A stretch of 64,000 nt of DNA from Magnetovibrionaceae bacterium (GTDB lineage Bacteria; Pseudomonadota; Alphaproteobacteria; Rhodospirillales; JBMYSY01), in NCBI GenBank assembly GCA_049603795.1, contig JBMYSY010000019.1, forward strand, positions 2,870 through 66,869. The letters run 5' to 3'. How positions within the stretch are numbered: position 1 is the first letter of the stretch; each line of letters opens with the position of its first letter. The notes under the pieces were generated by a model, which ran no database searches, was not told where the DNA came from, and worked only from the letters and a program-made list of their open reading frames with translations. This document shows positions 1 to 13,869 of the stretch, piece by piece. The translations under genes and the position numbers were made by a program.

Positions 1-1
1 T

Positions 2-880
2 CCGGCGGGTGCCTTGCACAAAGACACCAATTTCAAGGTCATTTGTGCCGTACCGGGAACCGACAGCCAGCACATCGTAGCCGACCATCAATCGATCGAG
101 AGCCTGGGCCTTCAAAGAGTCTCGGTGAAAACAGGCAAGCTGGAGCTGAAGGCCCTGGAGGTCGAACGAACGGTCTTTGAAGCCCTGCAGAAAGCCAAGG
201 AAGAGGGCGAAACCATCTATTGGGGCAAGGACGATCCGCTTTCGGCACTCGCCAACCTGCAAAAAGACCTAGTTGATCTCAGGTCTGGCTTTATGGCGCT
301 GATTGACGAAACGCCCCCCGACATCGCGGGCAAATCGACTTTCGCCCAGCAACCCCTGCAATGGGCGGCGAAAGAGTATGTTCGTCGAACGGGCCGCCGG
401 CGATTTACCCGGATCCAGAAACAATCCGTTCGGGTCATTCAGGGACCGGAAGCGGCTGGAAAAGCACCGAGGCGGGCCTGTGCACCCGGAAACAATCACC
501 GCCTTGTCGTCTATCTTGATCCGGACCTGAAGATGGGTTGGGAGGTGGTCTCCACCCTGGACGCCAACAAGGCCCGTTTCAAAGAGCGGTGGCAGGAGAT
601 CGGCGGACGCCTTTTGTTCAGGCTGCACAAGGATGATGTGGTCGAGATGACAGAAGACCCGGAAGCGCCTGAACCTTCCCGTTGTCTTTACCGCACCGTT
701 TCCCTTTCCGAAGGGGACTTGGAATTCATCAAGCTCTCGGATGCCCGTGGGGTCCGGGAAGTCCCGAAAGGCGTGTCCGTCCGACTGTCGAGCCTGGGCG
801 CTTTGGCCGAGCGTGACCCCCTGCCGGTGGTGTTGGATATCACCGGGCGGTTCCGATGGCGCCCCCGCGGTCGCAACTGA
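2..880 (+). CDS. cas9: Cas9 C-terminal fragment (type II-C effector; 5' end lies outside the window)
   Basis: The frame is open to the window edge. Stop TGA 878-880 sits 13 nt before the cas1 ATG. It is followed directly by type II cas1-cas2 and a 36-bp-repeat array, with no csn2 or cas4. The visible C-terminal sequence is not diagnostic on its own, so the call rests on context. Confidence 0.7.
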   Translation, partial: PAGALHKDTNFKVICAVPGTDSQHIVADHQSIESLGLQRVSVKTGKLELKALEVERTVFEALQKAKEEGETIYWGKDDPLSALANLQKDLVDLRSGFMALIDETPPDIAGKSTFAQQPLQWAAKEYVRRTGRRRFTRIQKQSVRVIQGPEAAGKAPRRACAPGNNHRLVVYLDPDLKMGWEVVSTLDANKARFKERWQEIGGRLLFRLHKDDVVEMTEDPEAPEPSRCLYRTVSLSEGDLEFIKLSDARGVREVPKGVSVRLSSLGALAERDPLPVVLDITGRFRWRPRGRN

Positions 881-893
881 AGGGGGCGGGATC

Positions 894-1811
894 ATGTGGC
901 GTGTCGTGGACATCGCCGAGGCGGATCGGCATCTTCATTTGTCCCGGCAATCCCTCGTGGTTTCCGACAAGGGGCAGGAGTTGGGGCGCATCCCGGTCTC
1001 CGACATTCAGGCTGTTCTGGTGCATGGATTCGGTGCCAGCCTGTCGCTGAATGTCGCCGCTGCCCTGGCCGAGGCGGGAATCCCCCTGGTGCTTTGCGGG
1101 GCAAACCATCTGCCCGCCCTGCTCTGCCTGCCGGTCAGTGCCAACTTTGAACAGGCCGCGCGCACAAACGCCCAGGCCGAGGCGAGCCTGCCTTTGAAGA
1201 AGCGGCTTTGGCAGTCGCTTATCCGGGCAAAGATCACCGCCCAGGCCCGTTGCCTGGAGGAATCAGACTCCCAAGGCCACTCCAGCCTGATCAAGCTGGC
1301 GAAGAAGGTCCGTGCCGGAGACCCGGATAATCTGGAAGCCCAGGCGGCAAGGGCCTATTGGCCGCGTTTGATGGGGCCGGATTTTCGCCGGGACCAGGAT
1401 GCCGACGGCCTGAATGCCCATTTGAACTATGGCTATGCCGTTTTGCGTGCCGCCGTCGCCCGGGCAGTCGTCGGGGCGGGGCTTAGCCCCGCGCTGGGTC
1501 TTCACCACCGCGGACGATTGAATCCCTTCCAACTGGTGGACGACCTGATGGAGCCCTTCCGCCCCCTGGTTGACCTGCTGGTCTGGCGCAACCGGACAGA
1601 ATGGACGGGCCGATTGGCACCGGACGCCAAGCGCAGCCTGGCCGGTTGGATTACCGCCAGCTTGCCGACCGACCAGGGCGCTCAACCGCTGACCCGGGTC
1701 ATGAGCCAACTGGCGGTCGGATTGGCCCAGGTCTACATGGGGGAAGAAAAGCAGCTCTGGCTTCCCGATGACTGGGCCTTGCTTCGCCAGGAGGAACTGG
1801 ACCTTGGCTGA
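894..1811 (+). CDS. cas1: CRISPR-associated endonuclease Cas1 (type II)
   Basis: ATG at 894 follows a purine-rich stretch. The 305-aa product starts MWRVVDIAEADRHLHLSRQSLVV and contains NAHLNYGYAVLRA, both typical of Cas1. It lies between cas9 and cas2. Confidence 0.9.
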   Translation: MWRVVDIAEADRHLHLSRQSLVVSDKGQELGRIPVSDIQAVLVHGFGASLSLNVAAALAEAGIPLVLCGANHLPALLCLPVSANFEQAARTNAQAEASLPLKKRLWQSLIRAKITAQARCLEESDSQGHSSLIKLAKKVRAGDPDNLEAQAARAYWPRLMGPDFRRDQDADGLNAHLNYGYAVLRAAVARAVVGAGLSPALGLHHRGRLNPFQLVDDLMEPFRPLVDLLVWRNRTEWTGRLAPDAKRSLAGWITASLPTDQGAQPLTRVMSQLAVGLAQVYMGEEKQLWLPDDWALLRQEELDLG

Positions 1812-1935
1812 CCAAGATTGCGCCGCCAGGGGTGGCACCCCGGTCCCCGTCGATGCGCTCGTGCGCCGGATCATCCGAAAACGCTGCGGCGGCCCCTCCA
1901 CGCTCAACGATCCCCCTCGCTCAGGATACCGATCC

Positions 1936-2241
1936 ATGTGGCTGATCTGCGTCTTCGACCTGCCTGTCGGTAACCCCGACGAACGCCGCCGAGCCACACG
2001 TTTTCGCAAGGATTTGCTGGATGAAGGTTTTTCGATGAAGCAATGGTCGGTCTACCAGCGCTATTTCGAAACCCGCGACCAGGCCGAGGCCTGCGCTGAC
2101 CGAATCGGGCCCAAGACTCCGGCCATGGGGCTTGTTACACTCTACTTTATTACCGACAAACAGTTCGGCCGGGCGCGGAATTTCCAGGGTCCGAATCGGG
2201 CTGAGGACGACGAAAAACCCGACCAACTAGCCCTCTTTTAG
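1936..2241 (+). CDS. cas2: CRISPR-associated endoribonuclease Cas2 (type II)
   Basis: MWLICVFDLPV..RRRATRFRKDLLDEGFSMKQWSVYQRY matches the type II Cas2 pattern (FDLP..R..Y..FRK.L...GF...Q.SVY). The start may lie further upstream (in-frame GTG at 1861). Stop is TAG 2239-2241. Confidence 0.85.
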   Translation: MWLICVFDLPVGNPDERRRATRFRKDLLDEGFSMKQWSVYQRYFETRDQAEACADRIGPKTPAMGLVTLYFITDKQFGRARNFQGPNRAEDDEKPDQLALF

Positions 2242-2271
2242 GTCCGATTCATGCGGTATTTAACGGCAGAA

Positions 2272-2313
2272 AACCCGCCTAAACTCCTGAAATATAAGGA
2301 ATTTAGGCGGGTT
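2272..2313. terminator. Perfect 12-bp inverted repeat hairpin between the cas2 stop and the first CRISPR repeat
   Basis: AACCCGCCTAAA (2272-2283) and TTTAGGCGGGTT (2302-2313) flank an 18-nt AT-rich loop that holds an inner TCCT/AGGA pair. The hairpin ends 2 nt before repeat 1. It may insulate or terminate between the cas operon and the array. Confidence 0.5.
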
Positions 2314-2315
2314 GG

Positions 2316-3803
2316 ACTGTAGCACAGGCTGTTTTGGAGAGCAGCTACAGCGCGCGGGCCACACGGGTGGCACGGGCAAGCACTGTAGCACAGGCTGTTT
2401 TGGAGAGCAGCTACAGCATCTTCCGGTCTCGCTTTGATGGGCCCAAGACTGTAGCACAGGCTGTTTTGGAGAGCAGCTACAGCCGGTGGACCGACTGAAA
2501 GACCTGGACGAAAACTGTAGCACAGGCTGTTTTGGAGAGCAGCTACAGCAAGAGGGTTGAGCCCCCGCGTGCCGAGAAAACTGTAGCACAGGCTGTTTTG
2601 GAGAGCAGCTACAGCGCACGACCGCTTCCAACAACTCCGGGCGTCACTGTAGCACAGGCTGTTTTGGAGAGCAGCTACAGCGGGACCAGCCGGACCAGGT
2701 CTATTTCGTTTACTGTAGCACAGGCTGTTTTGGAGAGCAGCTACAGCGTCACCTCTGTCATGGTGTCAGCGGACACCACTGTAGCACAGGCTGTTTTGGA
2801 GAGCAGCTACAGCTGGACCTCCTCGATATAAAAGGCCTGGAAGACTGTAGCACAGGCTGTTTTGGAGAGCAGCTACAGCGCTGTCATCGCGGTATTCCTT
2901 GGTGGCACCACTGTAGCACAGGCTGTTTTGGAGAGCAGCTACAGCCGACGGCAACCGACGGTTCCCAGCTCGCGGACTGTAGCACAGGCTGTTTTGGAGA
3001 GCAGCTACAGCCTGGCCATGGAGGGCGAACACGACGACGAAACTGTAGCACAGGCTGTTTTGGAGAGCAGCTACAGCGCGCTTGCACCTTTGCTCCGGCA
3101 CTTCCGCACTGTAGCACAGGCTGTTTTGGAGAGCAGCTACAGCCAGGCCTGGTCGAGGCGTCGGTCGGTCTTGACTGTAGCACAGGCTGTTTTGGAGAGC
3201 AGCTACAGCGGGCGTGCCCCCTTCGGCGGATACGCCTGCACTGTAGCACAGGCTGTTTTGGAGAGCAGCTACAGCGGAACAACCGCTTCCAACAACTCCG
3301 GGCGGACTGTAGCACAGGCTGTTTTGGAGAGCAGCTACAGCCGGTGATTGACGAAATTCCGGCTGAAGATGACTGTAGCACAGGCTGTTTTGGAGAGCAG
3401 CTACAGCAGTTGCGAGCCTATATCGCTGAGTTGCAAGACTGTAGCACAGGCTGTTTTGGAGAGCAGCTACAGCGGCGGACCCTCGAACAGTTCCGGGCGG
3501 ATTACTGTAGCACAGGCTGTTTTGGAGAGCAGCTACAGCCTAAAGGGTGCGCCCTGTTCGCGGTCGAGCACTGTAGCACAGGCTGTTTTGGAGAGCAGCT
3601 ACAGCGTATCCGGCGCACCTGGGGCGTGACCCATGACTGTAGCACAGGCTGTTTTGGAGAGCAGCTACAGCAGTACGAGCCCACCGCGATTGGAGCGATC
3701 TACTGTAGCACAGGCTGTTTTGGAGAGCAGCTACAGCGGGAAGCAGTTCACCTGCTCTCAGGGTTACACTGTAGCACAGGCTGTTTTGGAGAGCAGCTAC
3801 TGC
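2316..3803. CRISPR. CRISPR array: 23 repeats of 36 nt and 22 spacers, all 30 nt (period 66)
   Basis: Plus-strand repeat is ACTGTAGCACAGGCTGTTTTGGAGAGCAGCTACAGC, starting at 2316, 2382 ... 3768. The last repeat is degenerate (A to T at 3801). The reverse complement GCTGTAGCTGCTCTCCAAAACAGCCTGTGCTACAGT resembles the Neisseria meningitidis II-C repeat as I recall it (GTTGTAGCT...GTGCTACAAT). crRNAs are therefore probably made from the minus strand. Confidence 0.97.
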
Positions 3804-3934
3804 CATGGCTTGACGTTGTCCGTCTGCTGTTCCGCTTGCCTGCTGTCGGTGTGATCTCGATTCCGGGTTCGTGAAACGTTCGGGCCCGCCCTTCGGATGA
3901 GCCGAGGGTGGGTTTCTGCTAGAAGAGTAAGGCT

Positions 3935-4006
3935 ATGAAAACGCTCTTCGCCCTTTTGTTTCTGTGGATGGTCGTTCAGTCCTTGTATTCCTATCTGTTC
4001 AACTGA
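3935..4006 (+). CDS. Possible 23-aa hydrophobic peptide (MKTLFALLFLWMVVQSLYSYLFN)
   Basis: ATG preceded by GTAAGG in an AT-rich segment just beyond the array. The ORF is very short and has no homology support. Confidence 0.2.
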   Translation: MKTLFALLFLWMVVQSLYSYLFN

Positions 4007-4199
4007 TCGGTTCCGCCGAAATCCGAACGTCGTTCGTTTTCTGGGTTTCCAGTAAAGCGCCGCAATCCGTTGTCTCGGCCTCTTGGCCGGTGACGGCTTC
4101 ACCGAGGGTCGACGGGGCCACAACACGACATCCCAGGTCGTGCGTCGGCCTGTTGTAGGACTTGGGGCTGCGCCGTCCAGGCGTCTCGGTCGAAGCCTA
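3999..4199 (-). pseudogene. Relic of a transposase/integrase-core (rve-like) C-terminus
   Basis: The minus frame reads ...SYNRPTHDLGCRVVAPSTLGEAV...*. This resembles the conserved YN..RPH..LG..(T)P..(F) end of IS3/IS481-type DDE transposases. It is bounded by an in-frame stop after about 65 codons, with no intact upstream part. Confidence 0.3.
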
Positions 4200-4298
4200 G
4201 TTTGTCGGACCCAGCTGGCACAAAGCCCTCCTAGAATTGATGAACAACGTCGGTGGATGATGCGGTATACTACGTAAACGTGTTAATATGCTAAGTGG

Positions 4299-4327
4299 CT
4301 CGACTAAAGGAAGAAGGCCGACTATAT
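4299..4327 (+). promoter_or_regulatory. Candidate sigma-70 promoter CTCGAC-N17-CTATAT
   Basis: The -35 element is CTCGAC (4299-4304). Exactly 17 nt later comes the -10 element CTATAT (4322-4327), close to the alphaproteobacterial CTTGAC-N17-CTATAT consensus. The predicted start near 4334 lies about 70 nt upstream of the anti-repeat. Confidence 0.35.
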
Positions 4328-4409
4328 GCTTAAAATCCTATTTCAGTTGTTCAAGCTAATCTTCTTACTCAGTCTACTTTGGTTGGCCTTCTGTCTCGCC
4401 ATCACTTAA
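4326..4409 (+). CDS. Possible 27-aa hydrophobic peptide (MLKILFQLFKLIFLLSLLWLAFCLAIT)
   Basis: ATG is preceded by AAGGAAGAAGG. AT-rich codons contrast with the GC-rich genome. The stop TAA 4407-4409 lies inside the diverged repeat copy. This competes with the promoter reading above, because the -10 element overlaps the ATG. Confidence 0.25.
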   Translation: MLKILFQLFKLIFLLSLLWLAFCLAIT

Positions 4410-4613
4410 GGCTGGGCTGAATTCGAGAGCAGCTCTAGCCTAAAGGGTGAGACGGCGCTGTGGGGCGTATCTTCGTGGGAATCTCTCGGAGAGGGAGTAG
4501 ACACTGCGACCGCACCGCGCCTGTCCGCTCGGGTGAAGTGCCAAAGGGAGGTGCGGTCCCGGCAATTCACCTGCCACCTTCAGCTTAGCAACTTCCCTTG
4601 CCCAAAGCAAGGG
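4404..4613 (+). ncRNA. Candidate tracrRNA (anti-repeat 4404-4439; 3' end uncertain)
   Basis: 4404-4439 matches the repeat at 25/36 positions. Hand pairing to a minus-strand crRNA repeat gives 28/36 pairs, including 3 G-U. It is followed by UAAAGGG (nexus-like), a 9-bp stem (4508-4516/4550-4558) and the hairpin CCCTTGC-CCAAA-GCAAGGG (4595-4613). Confidence 0.55.
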
Positions 4614-5090
4614 CGTGCATCGCCCTCTAAAACGTTAATAGGGCCGCCGCCGGATAAACGTCGCCAAATCCGCGAGTCCAATTGTAACGTCTTGCGCTTG
4701 CCCGGCTTATCAAAAGGTGCCTGGTTCAAGGGCTCTGGTTCGAGGGCTCGACAGCCGTGTCTTTGCCGTCCCGCCGGTGTTGGATCAAAAGACGACACGG
4801 GCCCGACCCAACCCTGCGCTTTGATGTTAGCCGGGTTACAGCGGTCGAGCAATCCAAAGGCCGGTCCGGACAATCAAGATGTCCTTGACGGCGGGATGTC
4901 TTTGGTGTCGGCAGGGATGCGCCAAGGCGGTGGGAAAGAGAAGGGGCGAGGTGGGGCCTCCCTGGGAACCCCACATCATACTCCGGTGGCCATTGGCACC
5001 GTGTCACGGCCGGGAGACTATCACCGCGTCACTCGTCCCTCAGACCCGATGGTAGCGCAAAGATGCCGCCTTGTCGAAAGGTCTGCCGCC

Positions 5091-6071
5091 CTAGCCCCGC
5101 TTCAAGTCAATCGTCGTCACTTCGCCCCGGCTGAAGAAGCGGTAGGGCAGGCCGGATGTGCCTGCACCCGGGCTGGTGTAGCCCTGCATGCCGCCCAACT
5201 GCCAAAGCCCTCTTGCCAGGTCCTTGTTGCGGGTCAGGTGGGTGACCAGAGGCCGCCCGCCCGGCAGGCAGATCTGGCCGCCGTGGGTATGGCCGCAGAG
5301 GTAGAGATGGTGGCCGGCCTCGGCTGCTTCCTGCGCCAGTTCGGGGGAATGGACCAGGGCGAGGCCAAAGCCTTCGACCGGGGGCTTCAATGCCGCATCG
5401 GCGTCCGTGCTGTAGAAACGGTTCACGTCGTCGGTGCCCGTGATGGAGAGCGCGCCGCCGCCCCTTCGCAGCACATGCCGTTCGTTACAGAGCAGGCGGA
5501 TGCCAAGCCGGGCCTCGAAGGCCTCCCCCATGCGGTGGTCGTCGTGATTGCCGAGCGTGGCAACCACACCGTCGCGGGCCTTCACGGCGTCCAGGATCTT
5601 TGCCATCGGTTCCATGATTTGTTCGAACGGGCCGTCGTCACCCATGCGGTAGTCCCCGGTCATGACGCAGAGATCGACTTCCCGGCCCTTGAGCTGTTCG
5701 GCCAGGCGGTCACCGAGGCCCGGCAGGGCATCGAGATGAAGATCGGTCAGGTGCAAGATGCGATACCCCTCGAAAGCCTCCGGCAGGACCGAAGAGGTGA
5801 TGGTCAGCTGGCGGTCCTGCAGATCCAGGGCATTGGCCCGACCGCGGTTGCCCAGGCCGACCATCTCGACACCTCTTCCGAAACAGGCCATGGCGCGGTG
5901 GAAAAGGTCATCCCTGCGGGGGAGCTTCGTCCGTTCCGGGGATTGATAGAGACCGGAGGCCTCCATCATCGCCCTTCTTTTTAACCACAAAAGTCTAAGG
6001 GCTTTTGTCTTTGCCGATGTCTGATATGGAAAGTGAGCTTCCGATGGTGCCTGTTCAAGGGGCAGGGACAT
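5091..6071 (-). CDS. Metallophosphoesterase (calcineurin-like, YaeI/YkuE type)
   Basis: Motifs present: LHLTDLHLD, TGDY, GNHD and GHTHGGQ. The long plus-strand ORF 4533-5984 is its antisense shadow. Confidence 0.85.
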   Translation of the reverse strand: MSLPLEQAPSEAHFPYQTSAKTKALRLLWLKRRAMMEASGLYQSPERTKLPRRDDLFHRAMACFGRGVEMVGLGNRGRANALDLQDRQLTITSSVLPEAFEGYRILHLTDLHLDALPGLGDRLAEQLKGREVDLCVMTGDYRMGDDGPFEQIMEPMAKILDAVKARDGVVATLGNHDDHRMGEAFEARLGIRLLCNERHVLRRGGGALSITGTDDVNRFYSTDADAALKPPVEGFGLALVHSPELAQEAAEAGHHLYLCGHTHGGQICLPGGRPLVTHLTRNKDLARGLWQLGGMQGYTSPGAGTSGLPYRFFSRGEVTTIDLKRG

Positions 6072-6320
6072 GGTGGCTTCTCCGGTCTATGGCCGGACAC
6101 CTCGTCCGGACCCTCGGGTGTACAAAGAGCAACCGACATGCCAGGGCCGTGGGGCGGAATTGGGGCCCTTTGAGGGTCATTTTGCAGCAAAACCGTCGCG
6201 TTTTGCGGATCGAGTCGCAACTTGCAGTCCCAGGCCCAGCAGAGAGGCGTTGGCCGCGAGAAAGCTCAAAGCACCGGAAAATCAGGGGAAACGTGGGCTG
6301 CATCACAGCCAATCGAATAT

Positions 6321-6336
6321 TGGCATGGCACTTGCG
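6321..6336 (+). promoter_or_regulatory. Sigma-54 promoter (P4): TGGCATG-GCAC-TTGCG
   Basis: Fits TGGCAC-N5-TTGCW with GG and GC correctly spaced. The -12 GC lies 45 nt upstream of the SD-preceded ATG at 6380. Confidence 0.6.
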
Positions 6337-6379
6337 GAGACGGTTGGCGAAGAGCGTTCCGTCAGCAATGGAGGAGATT

Positions 6380-6547
6380 ATGTTTCAGAAAGTTCAGCCC
6401 TACCGGTCGCAGCACCAATCCCAGGTCAGCCTGACCCAATCACTTCTGTCCTGTCTCGGGCGGGAAGAAGCCATTCGCGTCGCCCAGGAAAACCACTGGG
6501 GTGGCATCCTGGCCGAACTGCAAGACGTCAGCGATACCGAACACTGA
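6380..6547 (+). CDS. Small hypothetical protein (55 aa)
   Basis: GGAGGAG lies 3-5 nt upstream of ATG 6380, and there is an alternative in-frame ATG at 6368. The product is MFQKVQPYRSQHQSQVSLTQSLLSCLGREEAIRVAQENHWGGILAELQDVSDTEH. The upstream sigma-54 promoter supports the call. I recognise no family. Confidence 0.45.
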   Translation: MFQKVQPYRSQHQSQVSLTQSLLSCLGREEAIRVAQENHWGGILAELQDVSDTEH

Positions 6548-6580
6548 ACACTGAACGTCAGGACGATTGGATCGTCAGGA

Positions 6581-7747
6581 CTAAGGGAAGGTATAGATCT
6601 CCCGGATTTTGGAAATCCGGACCGCGCGGTTTGAGTTCCAATAAGGCCCTTCGGCGAAGCCGAAGTGATGCAGACCCACCACCCGGCCTTCCGCATTCAG
6701 TATCGGGGAACCCGATGATCCACCGTAGGTGTCACAGAGGTGGGAAAAGTCCGATCCTTCTGCGCGCCCATCGGCGACCGGCTCGACGACATTGCAGTCC
6801 TGCACCGAGACCAGCTTCGGATAGCCGGAAGGGTGCTGGATGATGATCAGGTCCTGGCCGCTTTGCGGATCAGTCCCCTCGATCGGTAAAACACCCCAGT
6901 CCTCCCCCGCCTTCCTGCCCGGTGCCGACCCGAGGCTTTGCGAGGCTTTCAATTCCAGAACCGCAAAATCATAAGGCCGGTTGCTCGCCTTTACGGATGC
7001 ACAGCGATATTGCTGGCCATTCTGCAAACGCCTTTCCGCATCATACTCATAGCCGAAAACCGCTACCGTGGTCCGGCAGATATCGGCCGTCGGGACACAA
7101 TGATGATTGGTCATCAGCAGATCGTTTGCGATCAGAAAGCCGGTGCAGTTGTGTGGCTTTCCGTCCTTTGTGAAGATCAACTTCGCCACCGAAGGTGACG
7201 CCTTGGAAATCACCGGATGATTCCGGTAGGCGCGGACGTGTTCCAGTTGGTAGGGCGGCGTGATCGATTCTGGGCGTGCGGCATCCTGCTGGAAAAGGAG
7301 CTGGTCGAGTGTAAATCGGACCTGCGGCGGCTCTACGGCGGTCAACCTGACTTGTACATAATCTCCGGGAATCATCAGGCTGGTATAGTCGGTTCTGTCG
7401 GAAAAATCGGTGCCGCTGACGGCTTCAACAAGTGAGCCCGCCGCGTCATAGAATGACAGAGTAAAGTCCGTCGTTTGAGCCGCGATGTCGGTGAAATAAA
7501 GCCGCACATATTCGGCTCCAGGTTGGTTCTGCTCGGTGATCCAGGTGTAATTCGGCCCAAATTTTGGTGGCGGGGATTCAGCCAGATCGACCTTCATCTT
7601 GAGATGAGCGGCCGTCCCGTCCGGATGGCTGTACAGTTCAAACGGATCCGCTTTAGCTGGTGCCACAGAAAGGGCAGCAAGGCAGATCAGCCCAAGACTC
7701 AGACCCTTGTCGCGTCGCAGATAGGATTTCCATAATCCGATAAACAT
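6581..7747 (-). CDS. Secreted trypsin-like serine protease (S1B, V8/Glu-endopeptidase-like)
   Basis: Signal peptide MFIGLWKSYLRRDKGLSLGLICLAALSVAPAKA. Triad contexts are TNHHC, DFAVLEL and GGSSGSPIL. Start chosen at the second ATG (GGAGAA upstream); the ORF extends to 7771. Confidence 0.85.
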   Translation of the reverse strand: MFIGLWKSYLRRDKGLSLGLICLAALSVAPAKADPFELYSHPDGTAAHLKMKVDLAESPPPKFGPNYTWITEQNQPGAEYVRLYFTDIAAQTTDFTLSFYDAAGSLVEAVSGTDFSDRTDYTSLMIPGDYVQVRLTAVEPPQVRFTLDQLLFQQDAARPESITPPYQLEHVRAYRNHPVISKASPSVAKLIFTKDGKPHNCTGFLIANDLLMTNHHCVPTADICRTTVAVFGYEYDAERRLQNGQQYRCASVKASNRPYDFAVLELKASQSLGSAPGRKAGEDWGVLPIEGTDPQSGQDLIIIQHPSGYPKLVSVQDCNVVEPVADGRAEGSDFSHLCDTYGGSSGSPILNAEGRVVGLHHFGFAEGPYWNSNRAVRISKIREIYTFP

Positions 7748-7803
7748 AGCTGATTTCTCCGGTACGGCCACAGGCGCTTTTCATGCGCCAGCGCCCTCAT
7801 AAC

Positions 7804-10071
7804 CTACCTTATTCGGGAAATGTATTCCTTGATGTCGCTGAGCTGGAATTGGACCGAGCCACGAGGCCCGAATTCATTTGTGTTGATCTTCGTTGTATTG
7901 GACTGTGTCAAAATATAGCAGTCAGAGTGTCGAATAAGTTTCGAGTGGTTTTTTCCACTTCGTTCCAAATAGAAGACAGTATACTTGAACGGTTCGTCTT
8001 TGATTTTGTGCATGCGCCGGACCCGGTCAAAGGCGATATGTTGGGGCTTCCCCCCAACCACACGGCATTGTATTTCCGGGACTTCCCAGTCCTCCAGTGT
8101 GCCAACCAAGGGTGCCGATCCGTCTCTCAGTTCCAAATAGTCCCGTTTGATGTCGATGGCGCGTGCCACGTTCAGGCGTCCGCTGTAGACGTCCTCGATC
8201 AAGTGATCAAAGACATCGGCTGTATACATCAACCTGTTCTTTAGGGTTCCGGCTTCCAATTTGCCGAGATTCGCCTCTAGTCCCGCTTCATAAGCCGCAT
8301 GGATCAAGGAGGCGGCAGCGGATACCTGGGGGGCGGCCATTGAGGTGCCGTTGGCGATCCCTGTGTAGTCGTGCCCAGCGAGGCTCAGCACGTTCTCGGC
8401 AACCGCAGCAATATCGAAGCCGGTACCATGATTGGAGCCTTGCCTGGAATCCCTCCGCCAAATTTCCGGGTGATCATGATTTGTGGTCAATCCAACAACC
8501 GAAATGATGTTTTGGGCTTTTTCACAGGCCGGGTTTTCCGGGCAGCCGGCTCCTCCAAACGGAACGCGACGATTATCATTTCCAGCCGATGTCACCAGGA
8601 GCTTCCGGGGAAGGTTCTCTTTGATGAACTCGACAAAATCATCGGTGAGTTCGGTCTTTTCCTCACCATCTTCAGAACCCAAATTTCTCCGGGGCACGTC
8701 GTAGCCCCAGCTCATGTTGATGACCCTGACATTCTTCCGCAAAACGCCGACGGCTATCGTATCCATAACGGCCTCGGCGGCGGCGGCATCCCTGAATGAA
8801 TCACGATTCAAATGTTTGAAGACGACCCTGCCATAGGGATTGAGGCCAACAATCGATTGCTGGTTCAGCATGCTCACCATCAAACCGGAAACATGCGTCC
8901 CGTGATGAAACCTGGTCAAAGGCAAAGGGGAAATGTCGCCGCAAGTGGGCGCTTTCGGCTGGTCCTCAGGCCCGGTGGCCGTCGGGCTGTCCATCAATTC
9001 GACCCGTCCGGCCAGTTCGCAGTGGTCGTCGTCAATCCAGTTGTCCAAGACGACGATCGGATTGTTGGCCTGCATCTCAGGCGGCAACTCAGGATGGATG
9101 GCAAACGGATGGGAGATGGCCTCAAGAAGGGGCTTCTGGTCTTGGTATCCGGGTTCAAGCTGGGCGCTCATTTTGATGTTACCGCCGCGGGGCAGCCCTA
9201 AAAGGTCCTGCTTTAAGGCCTGCAGGCCGATGAAAGCGGTATCGGCGGAAGCGATATAGGCGTTCCAGACCTCAGAAAACTGGTCAGTATCCCGGCTATA
9301 GATGCCTTTTTGCGCAGGAAACGGGGGCGAAGCAATCGGGATGTCCGCTCGCAGGCGGTAATAAGGCAACATCGGTTTGCTGGCGATTTCGGCCTCAAGG
9401 GCTTTTGGTTCCCAGGCATTCATATCCCTGACAACCGCGTCGCAGGGAGCGTCGAACAGCGGCTTACAATCAAAACTGTGCCGATCCAGGATGGTCCCCA
9501 GGCTTTCTCCCGCCGGTTTGGGTAAGCGCTTGAATTTCAGTGACTTGTTAATCTCCAGAGCGGGCACCACCAGGGTTTCCGCCGTGTCGATCCCGGGCCA
9601 GTAGGGATAGGATTTTTCAAATCCGCCGACATGGGATGTCACGTCGTCCAGCGTTTGGGATTTCACCCTTTTGCGCCTGCAGACGTCCGGGTTCAGATCG
9701 CAGAGAACGCTTTGAATACCTTTGTCGAAGAAGTCGCCGTAGAACAGACCCTGTTCGCGCATGATGGCTTCGATGGCGTCCTCGGTCAGTGCCCGGCCCT
9801 TCTCGATCTGGATCGTTTTCACCGGCAGTTTGCCGGTGTTGTAGAGCGACAGGTAAAGCCGCTCCATTCGCTGCGAGATCGGCTGGTCACTGAGCAGGTC
9901 CGTCCCCCAAAGCACGGTTTTGGGATGGACCGGATTCGGTTTTTCAGAGTTGGGTCCTCCAGGGGCCTCTTGAGCCCCGGCCTCGGGAACAACAGCGCCG
10001 ATGGGCAGCGCCATCATCACCAGCAAGGTGGTTAGCAAAAGCGAACGGGATCTGCCCTTGCTCAAAAACAT
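7804..10071 (-). CDS. Secreted subtilisin-like serine protease (S8) with a long N-terminal region and a C-terminal extra domain
   Basis: Catalytic contexts are VLDNWIDDDH, HGTHVSG and GTSMAAPQVS. Signal peptide MFLSKGRSRSLLLTTLLVMMALPIGAVVPEAGA begins at ATG 10071; the track ORF start at 10215 is rejected. Confidence 0.9.
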   Translation of the reverse strand: MFLSKGRSRSLLLTTLLVMMALPIGAVVPEAGAQEAPGGPNSEKPNPVHPKTVLWGTDLLSDQPISQRMERLYLSLYNTGKLPVKTIQIEKGRALTEDAIEAIMREQGLFYGDFFDKGIQSVLCDLNPDVCRRKRVKSQTLDDVTSHVGGFEKSYPYWPGIDTAETLVVPALEINKSLKFKRLPKPAGESLGTILDRHSFDCKPLFDAPCDAVVRDMNAWEPKALEAEIASKPMLPYYRLRADIPIASPPFPAQKGIYSRDTDQFSEVWNAYIASADTAFIGLQALKQDLLGLPRGGNIKMSAQLEPGYQDQKPLLEAISHPFAIHPELPPEMQANNPIVVLDNWIDDDHCELAGRVELMDSPTATGPEDQPKAPTCGDISPLPLTRFHHGTHVSGLMVSMLNQQSIVGLNPYGRVVFKHLNRDSFRDAAAAEAVMDTIAVGVLRKNVRVINMSWGYDVPRRNLGSEDGEEKTELTDDFVEFIKENLPRKLLVTSAGNDNRRVPFGGAGCPENPACEKAQNIISVVGLTTNHDHPEIWRRDSRQGSNHGTGFDIAAVAENVLSLAGHDYTGIANGTSMAAPQVSAAASLIHAAYEAGLEANLGKLEAGTLKNRLMYTADVFDHLIEDVYSGRLNVARAIDIKRDYLELRDGSAPLVGTLEDWEVPEIQCRVVGGKPQHIAFDRVRRMHKIKDEPFKYTVFYLERSGKNHSKLIRHSDCYILTQSNTTKINTNEFGPRGSVQFQLSDIKEYISRIR

Positions 10072-10186
10072 TGTGCGCAACCCTGAATAGCTGTTTACCA
10101 ATTTATTTCTCCAAAGATAGTATATTCTATATATGGCGACAAGAAGGCGAGTGCATTCAGTACGAAAGGTATGAAAGGAGTGGCCT

Positions 10187-11950
10187 ATGATGATCAGGGG
10201 GCTGGGTATTGGCATCTCTCGCCGGGTCTTTCTTCAGGGCGCGGCGGCTTTTTCCGCGACGGTGGGGCTTTCCGGCTGTTCGACGCTTTTCTGTTCCTCT
10301 GGACCACGATCGCCTGTCCGGCGATCCGGCATCGATGTGCATGCCCATGTTTTCAACGCGTCGGATTTGCCCGCCGGGTCGTTTTTCCAGCGCGTCATCC
10401 TGCATGATCACGAGGATACGTTTAAGCCGAAACCCGACGCGGCGGAGGAGGCGCTTCACGGCGAGCTGGCGCAGCTTATCGTCGATATCCTGACCCGTTT
10501 CGCCGTACTTGCGAAGGATGAATACAAAGCCATCACCCGGGGCGAACCGGCGGAGACTTCGGCCTCTATCCCCCTGACGGACAGGCAGGTTCTGCGGGAT
10601 GTTCTGTCGGGCCAACAAGGCGGTGGCCTGCCGCTTCCGCCCTTCCAGGACGACGGGACGGTCCCCGTCCTGCCTGGTGTCGGAGGGGGCCCGGAAAGCC
10701 TACCGGGCGGCAACCCGGGGGAAGCTGCTCCGGGTGGTCCCGCTTATCTGGAAACCCTGAAAGACCAACTTCGGCGGGAAGGGCTCTACACAAAAGGCCC
10801 GGAAGAGGCTTTTCTGGTCGATGATATCGTCGAGGCGCTGCTGAAAAGCGTCAGCAGCATCGGTCGGACGGTGCGCTGGGCCCTATTGCTGCTCCGAAGC
10901 AGGCGGCACATCGTTGATCAATTGGTCAAGAGCTATGGCGGTCCGGGCGGTATCGAACTGTTCACACCGGCCCTGGTGGATTTCAGCCATTGGCTGGATG
11001 AAGACGACGCCACACGTTCGCCCTTTGACGATCAGGTTCTGGTCATGGACGAGATCCAGCAGCTCCAAACCGGCCCTTCAATGTTGCACTGCTTTGCACC
11101 CTTTAATCCGCTGGCACAGTTCTTCGCGGAACCCAATGCTGAAACGCCACTGGACCTGGCGAAGCGCGCCGTCATGGAGCACGGGTTTATTGGTGTCAAA
11201 CTCTACCCGCCGATGGGCTTTTTCCCGATTAACAACAGCCAGTACCAGCCGACCTTACCGGAGCGTTTCGATAAGCCGGGGACGAGAGAGAAGATCGTCT
11301 CAGGTTTGGATAAGGCCCTGGAGGAGCTCTACACCTGGTGTATCGAAAATTCGGTGCCGGTCATGGCGCACGCCACCGACAGCAACGCGGCTTTCAAAGG
11401 AACGGGGGAGCGGGCCAATCCGGAATACTGGCTGGACGTTCTGGGCGATGCCCGGTTCAAGGACCTTCACCTCAACCTCGGGCATTTTGGCGATTTCGAA
11501 GAAGCTTTCGAAAAAGATCCTTCAAAGCCCTGGGAACATGTGATCGGCGGTGCCTTCAAGGGTGGTGCGAAATCGCTTTTCGCCGACATGAGCTACCTGA
11601 GCGAGATTTTGGGCTCCAACACCACCGAAAAGCATCTCGGGAAACTCAACAACGCCCTCAAGGCCTATATCGCGAACTATGATGAAAAAGCGGAAAGCCT
11701 GATGTACGGCAGCGATTGGGTCATGCTGGGACGGGAGCCGGAATATGAGAACTATATCGGCCGCTTCACCGATTTCCTGGTCGAGGCGGAAATCGATCAG
11801 GCCCGCCAACACAGGATCTTCAAGGGCAATGCCGTCCGCTTCCTCGGGCTTGCCGAAAATGGCGAGAACCGGAAACGCCTGGAAGACTACTATTATAAAC
11901 ACAGGGACACCCTGGATGCGGACAAGCTGCATACTTTTGATGACGCCTGA
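10187..11950 (+). CDS. Amidohydrolase-family (TIM-barrel metal hydrolase) Tat-exported lipoprotein
   Basis: Twin-arginine signal with lipobox: SRRVFLQGAAAFSATVGLSGC. GIDVHAHVF and the C-terminal GSDWVM...NAVRFLGL are typical of amidohydrolase_2. It is divergent from the S8 gene. Confidence 0.8.
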   Translation: MMIRGLGIGISRRVFLQGAAAFSATVGLSGCSTLFCSSGPRSPVRRSGIDVHAHVFNASDLPAGSFFQRVILHDHEDTFKPKPDAAEEALHGELAQLIVDILTRFAVLAKDEYKAITRGEPAETSASIPLTDRQVLRDVLSGQQGGGLPLPPFQDDGTVPVLPGVGGGPESLPGGNPGEAAPGGPAYLETLKDQLRREGLYTKGPEEAFLVDDIVEALLKSVSSIGRTVRWALLLLRSRRHIVDQLVKSYGGPGGIELFTPALVDFSHWLDEDDATRSPFDDQVLVMDEIQQLQTGPSMLHCFAPFNPLAQFFAEPNAETPLDLAKRAVMEHGFIGVKLYPPMGFFPINNSQYQPTLPERFDKPGTREKIVSGLDKALEELYTWCIENSVPVMAHATDSNAAFKGTGERANPEYWLDVLGDARFKDLHLNLGHFGDFEEAFEKDPSKPWEHVIGGAFKGGAKSLFADMSYLSEILGSNTTEKHLGKLNNALKAYIANYDEKAESLMYGSDWVMLGREPEYENYIGRFTDFLVEAEIDQARQHRIFKGNAVRFLGLAENGENRKRLEDYYYKHRDTLDADKLHTFDDA

Positions 11951-11977
11951 GGAAGGTTGAAGTCGGCTCAAGCGGAC

Positions 11978-12889
11978 TCAAGACGGCAGGGATTTCACGA
12001 TCCGCCGCAGCCATTGGTGCGCTGGATCGGCGGTAAAGCGTTCGTGCCAGATTTGACTGATGGTGAAGGGCGGCATTGTCAGTTCGTCCGGCAGTTCGAC
12101 CAGCACCAGATGGTCCGTCATCACCTCCCGGGCCAACAGCTCCGGTACCGTCATGACGAGATCTGTTGAGGACAGCACGGCGCTGACGGTCAGAAAATGG
12201 GTGACCCGAAGCGCGATCTGGCGCGAAAGGCCGTTGTTTTTCAGTAACGCGTCTATGCGCCCGCCGCCCTTTCCCGTGACGCTCAACAAGGCATGGGATG
12301 CGGCGGCAAACCCTTCCAGGGTCATGGCCTCTTCCGCCAGGGGATGGCCTTTTCGCATCAGGCAGACCGAGCGATCCTGGATCAGCGCCTGGGCCCTGAC
12401 GTTATCCAACTGCGGACCCTGGTCGATTACCCCGAAGCCGAGGTCGATATCGCCCGCGTTCAACTCGGCGATTGCCCGATCGGAAAGATGTTCCATCTCG
12501 ATCCGAATGCCCGGGGCCAGTTGGAAAACCCTCGCCAACACCTTCGGCAAGATCATCTGGGCGAGATAATCAGGGGCCATGATGCGGAAGCGGTCTTTCG
12601 CCGTTGCCGGGTCAAACACCACGGGCTGAAAGACCAGAGACAACCGGTCGATTGCGTCGCGCACCGGTTCGCGCAAGCCCTCGCCTCGGGGGGTCAGGAC
12701 CATGCCGCGCCCGGACCGCACCAATATCGGATCCTTCAGGACATGTTGCAGCCGCCCCAAGGCCCGGCTCATGGCCGGCTGGGAAAGGTTGACGCGCAGC
12801 GCAGCCCTGCTGACGCTCCCGGTTTCCAACAAGGCCTCAAGCGCCTTCAGCAGGTTCAGGTCGATGCCCGATAAATTACCATCACGCAT
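11978..12889 (-). CDS. LysR-family transcriptional regulator
   Basis: N-terminal HTH IDLNLLKALEALLETGSVSRAALRVNLSQPAMSRAL plus a LysR substrate-binding fold. It is divergent from the NmrA-like gene. The start could be 12907. Confidence 0.9.
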   Translation of the reverse strand: MRDGNLSGIDLNLLKALEALLETGSVSRAALRVNLSQPAMSRALGRLQHVLKDPILVRSGRGMVLTPRGEGLREPVRDAIDRLSLVFQPVVFDPATAKDRFRIMAPDYLAQMILPKVLARVFQLAPGIRIEMEHLSDRAIAELNAGDIDLGFGVIDQGPQLDNVRAQALIQDRSVCLMRKGHPLAEEAMTLEGFAAASHALLSVTGKGGGRIDALLKNNGLSRQIALRVTHFLTVSAVLSSTDLVMTVPELLAREVMTDHLVLVELPDELTMPPFTISQIWHERFTADPAHQWLRRIVKSLPS

Positions 12890-13005: not shown

Positions 13006-13869
13006 ATGTTGGTCATCTCAGGCGTAACCGGAAACACCGGTTCCATTGTTGCCGACACCCTTCTCGCCCAGGGGCAGGCCGTCCGCGTCCTTGTCCGCTC
13101 CGCTGAAAAGGGGCTGCCTTGGAAGGCCAAGGGTGCAGAGGTCGCCATTGCTGACATTGATGATTTAGGCGCCGTAACAGCCGCCTTGGAAGGGGCCAGT
13201 GGGGCCTACTTCCTTCTGCCACCGGACCTGACCGACGAAGCCTTCATCGACAGGAGCCGTAAGCGTGCCGAGATCCTGGCCGAAGCGGCTAGATTAGCCC
13301 GACTGCCCCAGGCTGTCGTGCTGTCCTCGGTCGGTGCCCAGTACCAGGACCGGGTGGGGCCCATTGCGACCCTTTCCTACCTCGAAGATTTGTTCATCAA
13401 GGCGGGGATCCCCTTAAGCGCCGTTCGGCCCGGCTACTTCTTCGGCAACCTGAAGGAAATGCTGCCAACGGTCCTGGAAGCCGGGGTCTACCCCAGCATG
13501 GTCCTGCCTTTGGACTTCAAGATTGACATGGTGAGCGCGGAAGACATCGGCTTGGCCGTTGCCGAAGCCCTGGTCAATCCGACCTCTGAGCCGCATCGCG
13601 TGATTGAACTGAAAGGTGCTGCCCGCTATTCGGCAATTGACGTCGCCGCTGCCTTTTCAAAGGCCCTGGGGCGGGAAATCCTGCCGGTACCGGTCCAGCC
13701 GGAGACCTGGGTGGATCAGTTGACCCAGGCCGGTCTGCCCGGCCAGACGGCGGAAGCCATGGCCGAGATGCACGAAAACATCAACAATGGCCGGATCGAT
13801 TTTGTCGATCCGAATGCCCGGAAAGGAACCGTCAACCTGGACGATTTCGTCTCCCGCCTGGTTGCTTAG
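13006..13869 (+). CDS. NmrA-like / NAD(P)-binding (atypical SDR) protein
   Basis: AAAGGAGA RBS. MLVISGVTGNTGSIVADTLL is a Rossmann GxxGxxG-type N-terminus. Confidence 0.85.
   Translation: MLVISGVTGNTGSIVADTLLAQGQAVRVLVRSAEKGLPWKAKGAEVAIADIDDLGAVTAALEGASGAYFLLPPDLTDEAFIDRSRKRAEILAEAARLARLPQAVVLSSVGAQYQDRVGPIATLSYLEDLFIKAGIPLSAVRPGYFFGNLKEMLPTVLEAGVYPSMVLPLDFKIDMVSAEDIGLAVAEALVNPTSEPHRVIELKGAARYSAIDVAAAFSKALGREILPVPVQPETWVDQLTQAGLPGQTAEAMAEMHENINNGRIDFVDPNARKGTVNLDDFVSRLVA

Follow-up and report, generated by a model that had tools for sequence, protein, structure and literature searches.

A solitary repeat-like sequence lying beyond a type II-C CRISPR array, and followed in register by the first 10 nt of one of the spacers of that array, raises the question whether it is a tracrRNA gene, some other Cas9-associated RNA gene or a stray piece of the array itself. 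The element is found in a 64,000-nt stretch of DNA (referred to as the window) from a Magnetovibrionaceae metagenome-assembled genome. A preliminary description of the window had called it a tracr locus and had offered three explanations for the shared 10 nt, namely descent or recombination from a repeat-spacer unit, capture of the spacer from a related tracr-bearing element, and a self-occluded or regulatory crRNA.

The type II-C locus and its tracrRNA

The window starts within cas9 (Table 1), and the region to its left has been recovered from a second assembly, the Logan assembly of run SRR27204692 (L001), which is from the same organism and probably the same sample. L001 is 100% identical to the window over the non-array parts, the array being collapsed in it, and reaches 2.8 kb further left, with its position 2843 corresponding to window position 1. 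It encodes a complete cas9 at 300-3722 (1140 aa), for which Cas9 Pfam domains are present in the gene calls. The order cas9-cas1-cas2 without a fourth adaptation gene, an array of 36-nt repeats and a tracrRNA together give the make-up of a type II-C system. The next most similar protein to this Cas9 is 48% identical in a homology search of 5.8 billion proteins, and the closest relatives of Cas1 among 185,579 species genomes are 63-65% identical. When Cas1, Cas2 and the neighbouring phosphoesterase were looked up for exact matches, a single contig was obtained, from the same sample. No Rfam match was obtained in window positions 1-12000 at E <= 1.

Table 1. Features of the CRISPR-Cas locus and of the region beyond its array (window coordinates)
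Feature	Position	Strand	Remarks
cas9, 3' end	1..880	+	ORF open at window start; gene start left of window
cas1, 305 aa	894..1811	+	PF01867 on the identical L001 protein
cas2, 101 aa	1936..2241	+	PF09827
cas2-proximal array flank	2242..2315		Presumed leader (acquisition) side
Type II-C CRISPR array	2316..3803	-	crRNA sense, GCTGTAGCTGCTCTCCAAAACAGCCTGTGCTACAGT; 23 repeats of 36 nt, 22 spacers of 30 nt
Repeat 19	3504..3539	-	Perfect copy
Spacer 19	3540..3569	-	Plus-strand start CTAAAGGGTG
Terminal repeat (cas-distal, old end)	3768..3803	-	One mismatch
Hydrophobic ORF, 23 aa, hypothetical	3935..4006	+	MKTLFALLFLWMVVQSLYSYLFN; AT-rich pocket
Hydrophobic ORF, 27 aa, hypothetical	4326..4409	+	MLKILFQLFKLIFLLSLLWLAFCLAIT; AT-rich pocket; stop codon within stray repeat
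Solitary degenerate repeat (earlier 'tracr locus')	4404..4439		25/36 against repeat; 3' half kept, 5' half diverged
14-bp hairpin, stray repeat and first 6 nt of flank	4405..4445	+	-18.6 kcal/mol, z = -2.5
Core block homologous to 3515-3549 (repeat-19 3' part and 10 nt of spacer 19)	4415..4449		30/35 identical
10 nt identical to spacer 19 start	4440..4449		CTAAAGGGTG

The array has a period of 66, all its spacers being exactly 30 nt, and its repeat reads ACTGTAGCACAGGCTGTTTTGGAGAGCAGCTACAGC on the plus strand; the last repeat is the sole copy with a mismatch. Of 51 arrays in related loci, 48 have a perfect copy of the repeat next to cas2 and 26 a degenerate one at the distal end. In Neisseria the leader end receives new spacers, and crRNAs initiate at promoters embedded in the repeats (PMC12477760). 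The window repeat is similar to the Neisseria repeat quoted there, and its end in the crRNA sense, TGCTACAGT, resembles the repeat-embedded extended -10 promoter of Neisseria type II-C systems (TGCTACAAT). On this resemblance crRNAs may initiate within each spacer here as well, from a repeat-embedded promoter.

The true tracrRNA is encoded immediately upstream of cas9 on the minus strand of L001, 2.6 kb left of the window, and was missed from the window alone because of this position. It reads GCTGTTTTGGAGAGCAGCTACAGT / AAGGTGAATCCGAAAGGGTTCACC…GGGGCGCTCACGGGCGCCCCTTTTT, the fuller string past the anti-repeat being GCTGTTTTGGAGAGCAGCTACAGT / AAGGTGAATCCGAAAGGGTTCACCAGAAAGATTGAGGGGCGCTCACGGGCGCCCCTTTTT, and is made up of a 24-nt anti-repeat, a 9-bp nexus hairpin, a linker and a GC-rich hairpin with a U tract. 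The anti-repeat matches the repeat at 23 of 24 positions and adds a terminal G:U pair, and the terminator consists of GGGGCGC…GCGCCCC followed by TTTTT. In three related loci (L002, L004 and L005) a tracrRNA of the same architecture occupies the same position, on the opposite strand upstream of cas9; the anti-repeats are conserved, and the hairpins differ in sequence with their pairing kept. Apart from the identical L001 region described below, none of L001, L002, L004 and L005 has a counterpart of the element beyond the array.

The array is read in the minus-strand sense, because this is the sense complementary to the terminator-bearing tracrRNA of L001. The 10 nt shared with the element (3540-3549) therefore constitute the PAM-proximal seed of crRNA-19, which reads …CACCCUUUAG beside the repeat, as had been proposed earlier.

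The element itself is not a tracrRNA gene but a stray repeat, and its earlier label was wrong. It resembles tracrRNAs of the Neisseria type II-C kind (Chylinski et al. 2013, PMC3737331) in that part of it, identical to the 3' part of the repeat at 20 of 25 positions, could pair with the repeat of the crRNA and precedes a UAA(A)GG-type motif. It differs from a canonical type II-C tracrRNA in its 5 mismatches in 25 nt, and it has neither the conserved position relative to cas9 nor 3' hairpins that end in an intrinsic terminator, with a terminator-like site and a U tract both absent. The region downstream of the element shares no significant similarity with the body of the true tracrRNA (p = 0.12).

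The suggestion that the tracrRNA nexus occludes the seed of crRNA-19 does not hold for the working tracrRNA. When the 22 crRNAs were folded with it, the expected 24-bp duplex was obtained at -82 to -90 kcal/mol, and crRNA-19 gave a typical value of -85.5 kcal/mol with zero spacer pairing; the nexus therefore does not pair with its seed. In these folding models occlusion would apply solely if the stray element were transcribed from the plus strand.

Variation of the tracrRNA site has been observed in other related loci. An Azospirillum MAG (L015) has two tracrRNA-like copies on the minus strand upstream of cas9 (6153-6170 and 6590-6607, 437 nt apart), with identical anti-repeat cores and slightly different nexus hairpins. 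The anti-repeat of L003 (about 6400-6455, minus strand) is interrupted by an insertion of about 31 nt (TTGGAGAGCAGC[…]CTACAGTAAGG). In three Thalassospira loci (L006, L007 and L010) the tracrRNA site of other relatives, located on the opposite strand ahead of cas9 (about 5580-6115, minus), is taken up by a second array that uses the same repeat.

A sequence resembling a repeat-spacer junction outside the array

The element at 4404-4439 is the most repeat-like 36-mer outside the array on both strands of the window, among about 128,000 positions. It scores 25 against a next best of 22 and a background mean of 9.1 (sd 2.6), a similarity beyond chance. It lies 600 bp past the cas-distal end of the array, its start being 636 nt from that of the last repeat, and shows no regular spacing with the neighbouring repeats. 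As it is the distal repeats that decay in related arrays, the element is placed beyond the old end of the array, in agreement with the Neisseria work mentioned above. No second degenerate repeat was detected on either side of it, including at a distance of about 66 nt (p = 0.6-0.74). A search for leader-like sequence upstream of the element gave only a non-collinear 14/17 match (p = 0.045), which was rejected. The whole segment 3804-5090 (1287 nt) is present at 100% identity in L001, a second assembly, if probably of the same sample, and an assembly artefact has been rejected as the source of the element for this reason.

Array positions 3525-3549 (GAGAGCAGCTACAGCCTAAAGGGTG) and element positions 4425-4449 (GAGAGCAGCTCTAGCCTAAAGGGTG) differ at two bases only (AC vs CT), and when split at the junction they read GAGAGCAGCTACAGC / CTAAAGGGTG and GAGAGCAGCTCTAGC / CTAAAGGGTG, respectively. 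The identity past the repeat, between 3540-3549 and 4440-4449, is exact to the base as first described, and ends at base 11 (C vs A). The homology is centred on the junction, with 30/35 positions identical over the core block as against 5/11 in the remaining 5' part of the repeat; it ends abruptly, and the flanks are unrelated. The remainder of spacer 19 has no counterpart beside the element (p = 0.79).

The chance that any of the 22 spacers would start with the same 10 nt is 1.7-2.1e-5, the range spanning the base composition of the window, that of the spacers and a uniform one, and the preliminary figure of about 2e-5 is thereby confirmed. The next-best spacer has 2 nt in common with the flank of the element, and on its opposite side the best match is again 2 nt. 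As an empirical null, the sequences flanking anti-repeats or repeat-like elements in 22 related type II-C loci were compared with the 403 spacers of these loci, and the longest shared start was 5 nt. Recurrence of spacer 10-mers anywhere in the 64-kb window is common (134 found); the unusual feature is the register alone, in that the 10 nt immediately follow a repeat-like sequence and keep their orientation.

These figures bear upon pure coincidence, in which a decayed stray repeat precedes by luck the same 10 nt with which one of 22 unrelated spacers begins. The abundance of shared 10-mers, the recurrence of TAAAGGGTGC near 11096, the end of the similarity at base 10 and the selection of the finding after a reading of the whole window are all in its favour. 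The register-specific probability, the far shorter matches of the other spacers both here and in the related loci, and the centring of the homology block on the junction make it unlikely.

The differences between the element and the repeat are clustered multi-base changes (GT>TA, CACA>GCTG, TT>AA and AC>CT). Changes affect 11 of 36 positions in the repeat part and none of the 13 bases spanning the junction, a distribution with a probability of about 0.03 under uniform decay, so that either non-neutral changes, such as those forming a hairpin, or a mosaic block are indicated. Two further resemblances have been noted in the flank. The segment TAAAGGGTGA is similar to TAAGGTGA, with which the true nexus begins (p of about 0.002, post hoc). 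The sequence following the 10 nt resembles spacer S20 (CGGCGC-TGTGGGGCGT), likewise post hoc, with p = 0.023 for S20 alone and p = 0.59 when all 44 spacer and strand comparisons are counted.

Origin of the shared junction

The explanation that we favour, with about even confidence, is common descent of a short patch, the element being a single copy of the repeat-19/spacer-19 junction that has since decayed. A patch of about 35-46 nt, taking in the 3' part of the repeat and 10 nt from the start of spacer 19, would have been copied in one direction or the other between the array and the site by illegitimate recombination, template switching or a rearrangement of the array end, the copy stopping 10 nt into the spacer. 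Later clustered changes would then have turned the quasi-palindromic repeat into a longer hairpin. We infer such a copying event, its mechanism and the lack of a present function. The two junctions would be identical because of shared descent, from which the exact register, the common orientation, the abrupt end of the identity and the centring of the homology on the junction all follow without extra assumptions. Descent or recombination from a repeat-spacer unit is retained from the three options offered earlier, and the tracr nature that had been attached to the locus is dropped.

The position of the element, past the end at which related type II-C arrays decay, appears to fit a relic, as does a parallel case in Zavarzinia aquatilis (L060). 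In that locus a detached repeat-like unit (13108-13143, 28/36) lies 369 nt past the array, and its flank shares no start with any of the L060 spacers. The true tracrRNA is elsewhere, guide targets are absent from 67 kb, and no terminator-like site follows the element. The resemblance of the flank to S20 is at most a weak hint in the same direction. The element is like the degenerate terminal repeats of 26 of the 51 related arrays in lying past the cas-distal end, and unlike them in being detached by 600 bp rather than by one spacer. Terminal repeats in relatives lose their distal half; the element instead keeps the half abutting the spacer, which is consistent with a junction fragment.

Several observations speak against a simple relic. 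Spacer 19 would have to persist for as long as its copy. The hairpin is more stable than its shuffles and better on the plus strand, which could reflect selection on an RNA. The 13 unchanged junction bases contrast with the changes in the repeat part, and the resemblance of the flank to the nexus is left unexplained by a pure relic.

The half retained is also the wrong one for an ordinary terminal repeat, and this weighs on a different origin, in which an older part of the array has left the element as its final remnant, the former spacer having come from the protospacer of spacer 19, with the same PAM and a diverged target. Repeated sampling of a single site by spacers 5, 15 and 18 and the location past the old array end would agree with it. 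A decayed neighbouring repeat is absent at about 66 nt on either side, and a spacer decayed like the repeat (31% changed) should not retain 10 of 10 bases; we regard this origin as very unlikely.

Spacers 5 (2616-2645), 15 (3276-3305) and 18 (3474-3503) represent one target site in diverged variants, with similarity lost abruptly; spacers 5 and 15 have 23 nt in common with the register shifted by 1 nt, and the shift of spacer 18 is 3 nt. Most of the differences among the three recur with a period of three bases, suggesting that the target codes for protein. A search of IMG/VR with the core common to spacers 5 and 15, meant to reveal the PAM, gave no match.

Such sampling also lends some weight to a capture of spacer 19 by Cas1-Cas2/Cas9 from beside a homologous repeat- or tracr-like element in a foreign replicon or related strain, the remaining protospacer differing from the resident copy. 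A type II-C tracrRNA nexus begins with a sequence similar to the shared 10 nt. In the crRNA sense the stray repeat starts with GCTAGAGC and the array repeat with GCTGTAGC, a difference at positions 4-5, where the N4G-type PAMs of Neisseria-like Cas9s would have their onset (N4GATT is quoted in PMC12477760). The exact register would demand a PAM within the repeat-like sequence, and such a role of GCTAGAGC is conjectural here. No protospacer of spacer 19 was found in GenBank phages (blastn with the whole array), PLSDB plasmids, IMG/VR (distal 20 nt) or JGI metagenomes (central 22 nt), and neither IMG/VR nor the metagenomes contain the junction pattern GAGAGCAGCTNNAGCCTAAAGGGTG. In view of this, capture is distinctly improbable. 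A full spacer 19 protospacer in an unrelated phage, the result that the preliminary description had named as evidence against its reading, is likewise missing from these collections.

The repeat core was also compared with IMG/VR. Twenty matches were obtained, all of them chance-like except one (L097), which is uninformative: a repeat at the start of a contig (28-63 of UViG_2887752426_000004), 32/36 identical to the window repeat and adjoining an IS630-like transposase gene.

The hairpin, small ORFs and a possible regulatory role

The repeat and the start of its flank form a hairpin on the plus strand (Table 1), and the differences of the element from the repeat improve its pairing. The minus-strand hairpin is weaker (-13.1 kcal/mol, z = -1.5), and the array junction, with z = -0.6, does not adopt this fold. 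The hairpin imitates the repeat:anti-repeat duplex over its initial 10 bp, a nexus-like UAAAGGGUGA comes after it, and the segment 4404-4580 as a whole is structured (z = -3.0). Copies of the hairpin arms were not found elsewhere in the window.

These features could belong to a working Cas9-associated RNA gene, either a second tracr-like RNA, a scaRNA- or crRNA-like guide, or a single-guide-like hairpin. The 10 nt would then tie the element to crRNA-19 through a longer duplex, through a seed in common, or because Cas9:crRNA-19 binds the locus without cleaving it. A plus-strand transcript would pair with the crRNA repeats over 25 nt with 5 mismatches, and its best predicted partner is crRNA-19, at -112 kcal/mol, ahead of the remaining 21 (-92 to -104 kcal/mol) by about 8-10 kcal/mol. 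Standalone repeat-like RNAs, scaRNA and tracr-L are known (PMC10120712, PMC13431127), and a duplicated tracr is present in L015. A consensus scan for sigma-70-type signals, in what is an alphaproteobacterial host, gave no plus-strand promoter-like site and no terminator adjoining the element, nor does a U tract follow it. Equivalents are absent from relatives. Seed-anchored targets were absent from 67 kb under either guide reading, the cas9/tracr promoter region included; a 10-nt seed match was given by spacer 19 alone, a site flanked by a repeat. CRISPR spacers are normally transient, so a fixed partnership between an element and one spacer is unexpected. A working RNA is accordingly a doubtful reading, which we hold to be distinctly unlikely.

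Repeat-derived regulators are nevertheless known in type II systems, and a function of the element is therefore possible. Examples are scaRNA in Francisella (type II-B) and Neisseria meningitidis (type II-C) (PMC13431127) and tracr-L in Streptococcus pyogenes (as summarised in PMC10120712). These are repeat-derived RNAs beside the type II array, some of them single-guide-like, with partial matches of about 11 nt (PMC13431127, PMC10120712). Unlike scaRNA and tracr-L, the element is known from sequence alone, and its sole seed match is a spacer in the array; an endogenous PAM-flanked seed target of the scaRNA type (10 nt or more) is absent from 67 kb.

In the survey of Shmakov et al. 2023 (PMC10120712), about 6% of type II loci contained repeat-like elements, there mini-arrays, apart from tracrRNA, and many unconserved ones were judged to be degraded repeats without function. 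The element is like the standalone repeat units of that survey in being single, partly degraded, near the array and without a recognisable second repeat. It is unlike them in that 10 nt from the start of a spacer still found in the array follow it in register, a feature that the parts of the survey drawn on here do not describe.

The 1.29-kb stretch beyond the array has no called genes and contains two small hydrophobic ORFs, whose 23-aa and 27-aa products might, by their appearance, be membrane peptides or type I toxins. Neither ORF has a family or homologue in Pfam or in related loci, and the stretch itself is likewise without a counterpart in the related loci. In CreTA of type I-B systems, as summarised in PMC10120712, a crRNA-like antitoxin guards a small toxin. 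The present locus is similar in that a degenerate repeat adjoins small ORFs resembling membrane-toxin candidates. It differs in being of type II and in that the spacer-like segment near the 27-aa ORF, upstream of it at 4304-4313, matches at only 8 of 10 nt (7 contiguous). A segment directly 5' of the start of this ORF (4299-4313, CTCGACTAAAGG) resembles the junction CTAGCCTAAAGG at 10 of 12 positions, probably by chance.

A more specific proposal, which we consider very improbable indeed, is that the element is a Cas9-associated regulatory RNA residing in the 3' end of a small hydrophobic-peptide gene, spacer 19 having been retained because the 10-nt seed of the element is also that of crRNA-19 or pairs with it. 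Equally remote is the corresponding mode of action, in which Cas9 would control the element or the toxin-like ORF without cleavage, the hairpin mimicking the crRNA:tracrRNA duplex.

The locus is an ordinary type II-C system, the element being a stray fragment of an array junction and most likely a relic. Its annotation is corrected accordingly, with the tracrRNA upstream of cas9 and a stray repeat downstream of the array. The element offers a clean example of a repeat-spacer junction fragment that outlasts outside an array, and bears on the way in which arrays shed and scatter their pieces. If the element were instead expressed and bound by Cas9, it would be a new type II-C regulatory RNA tied to one spacer and to a candidate small toxin, and on the regulatory reading it would be a type II-C analogue of the tracr-L, scaRNA or CreTA circuits.
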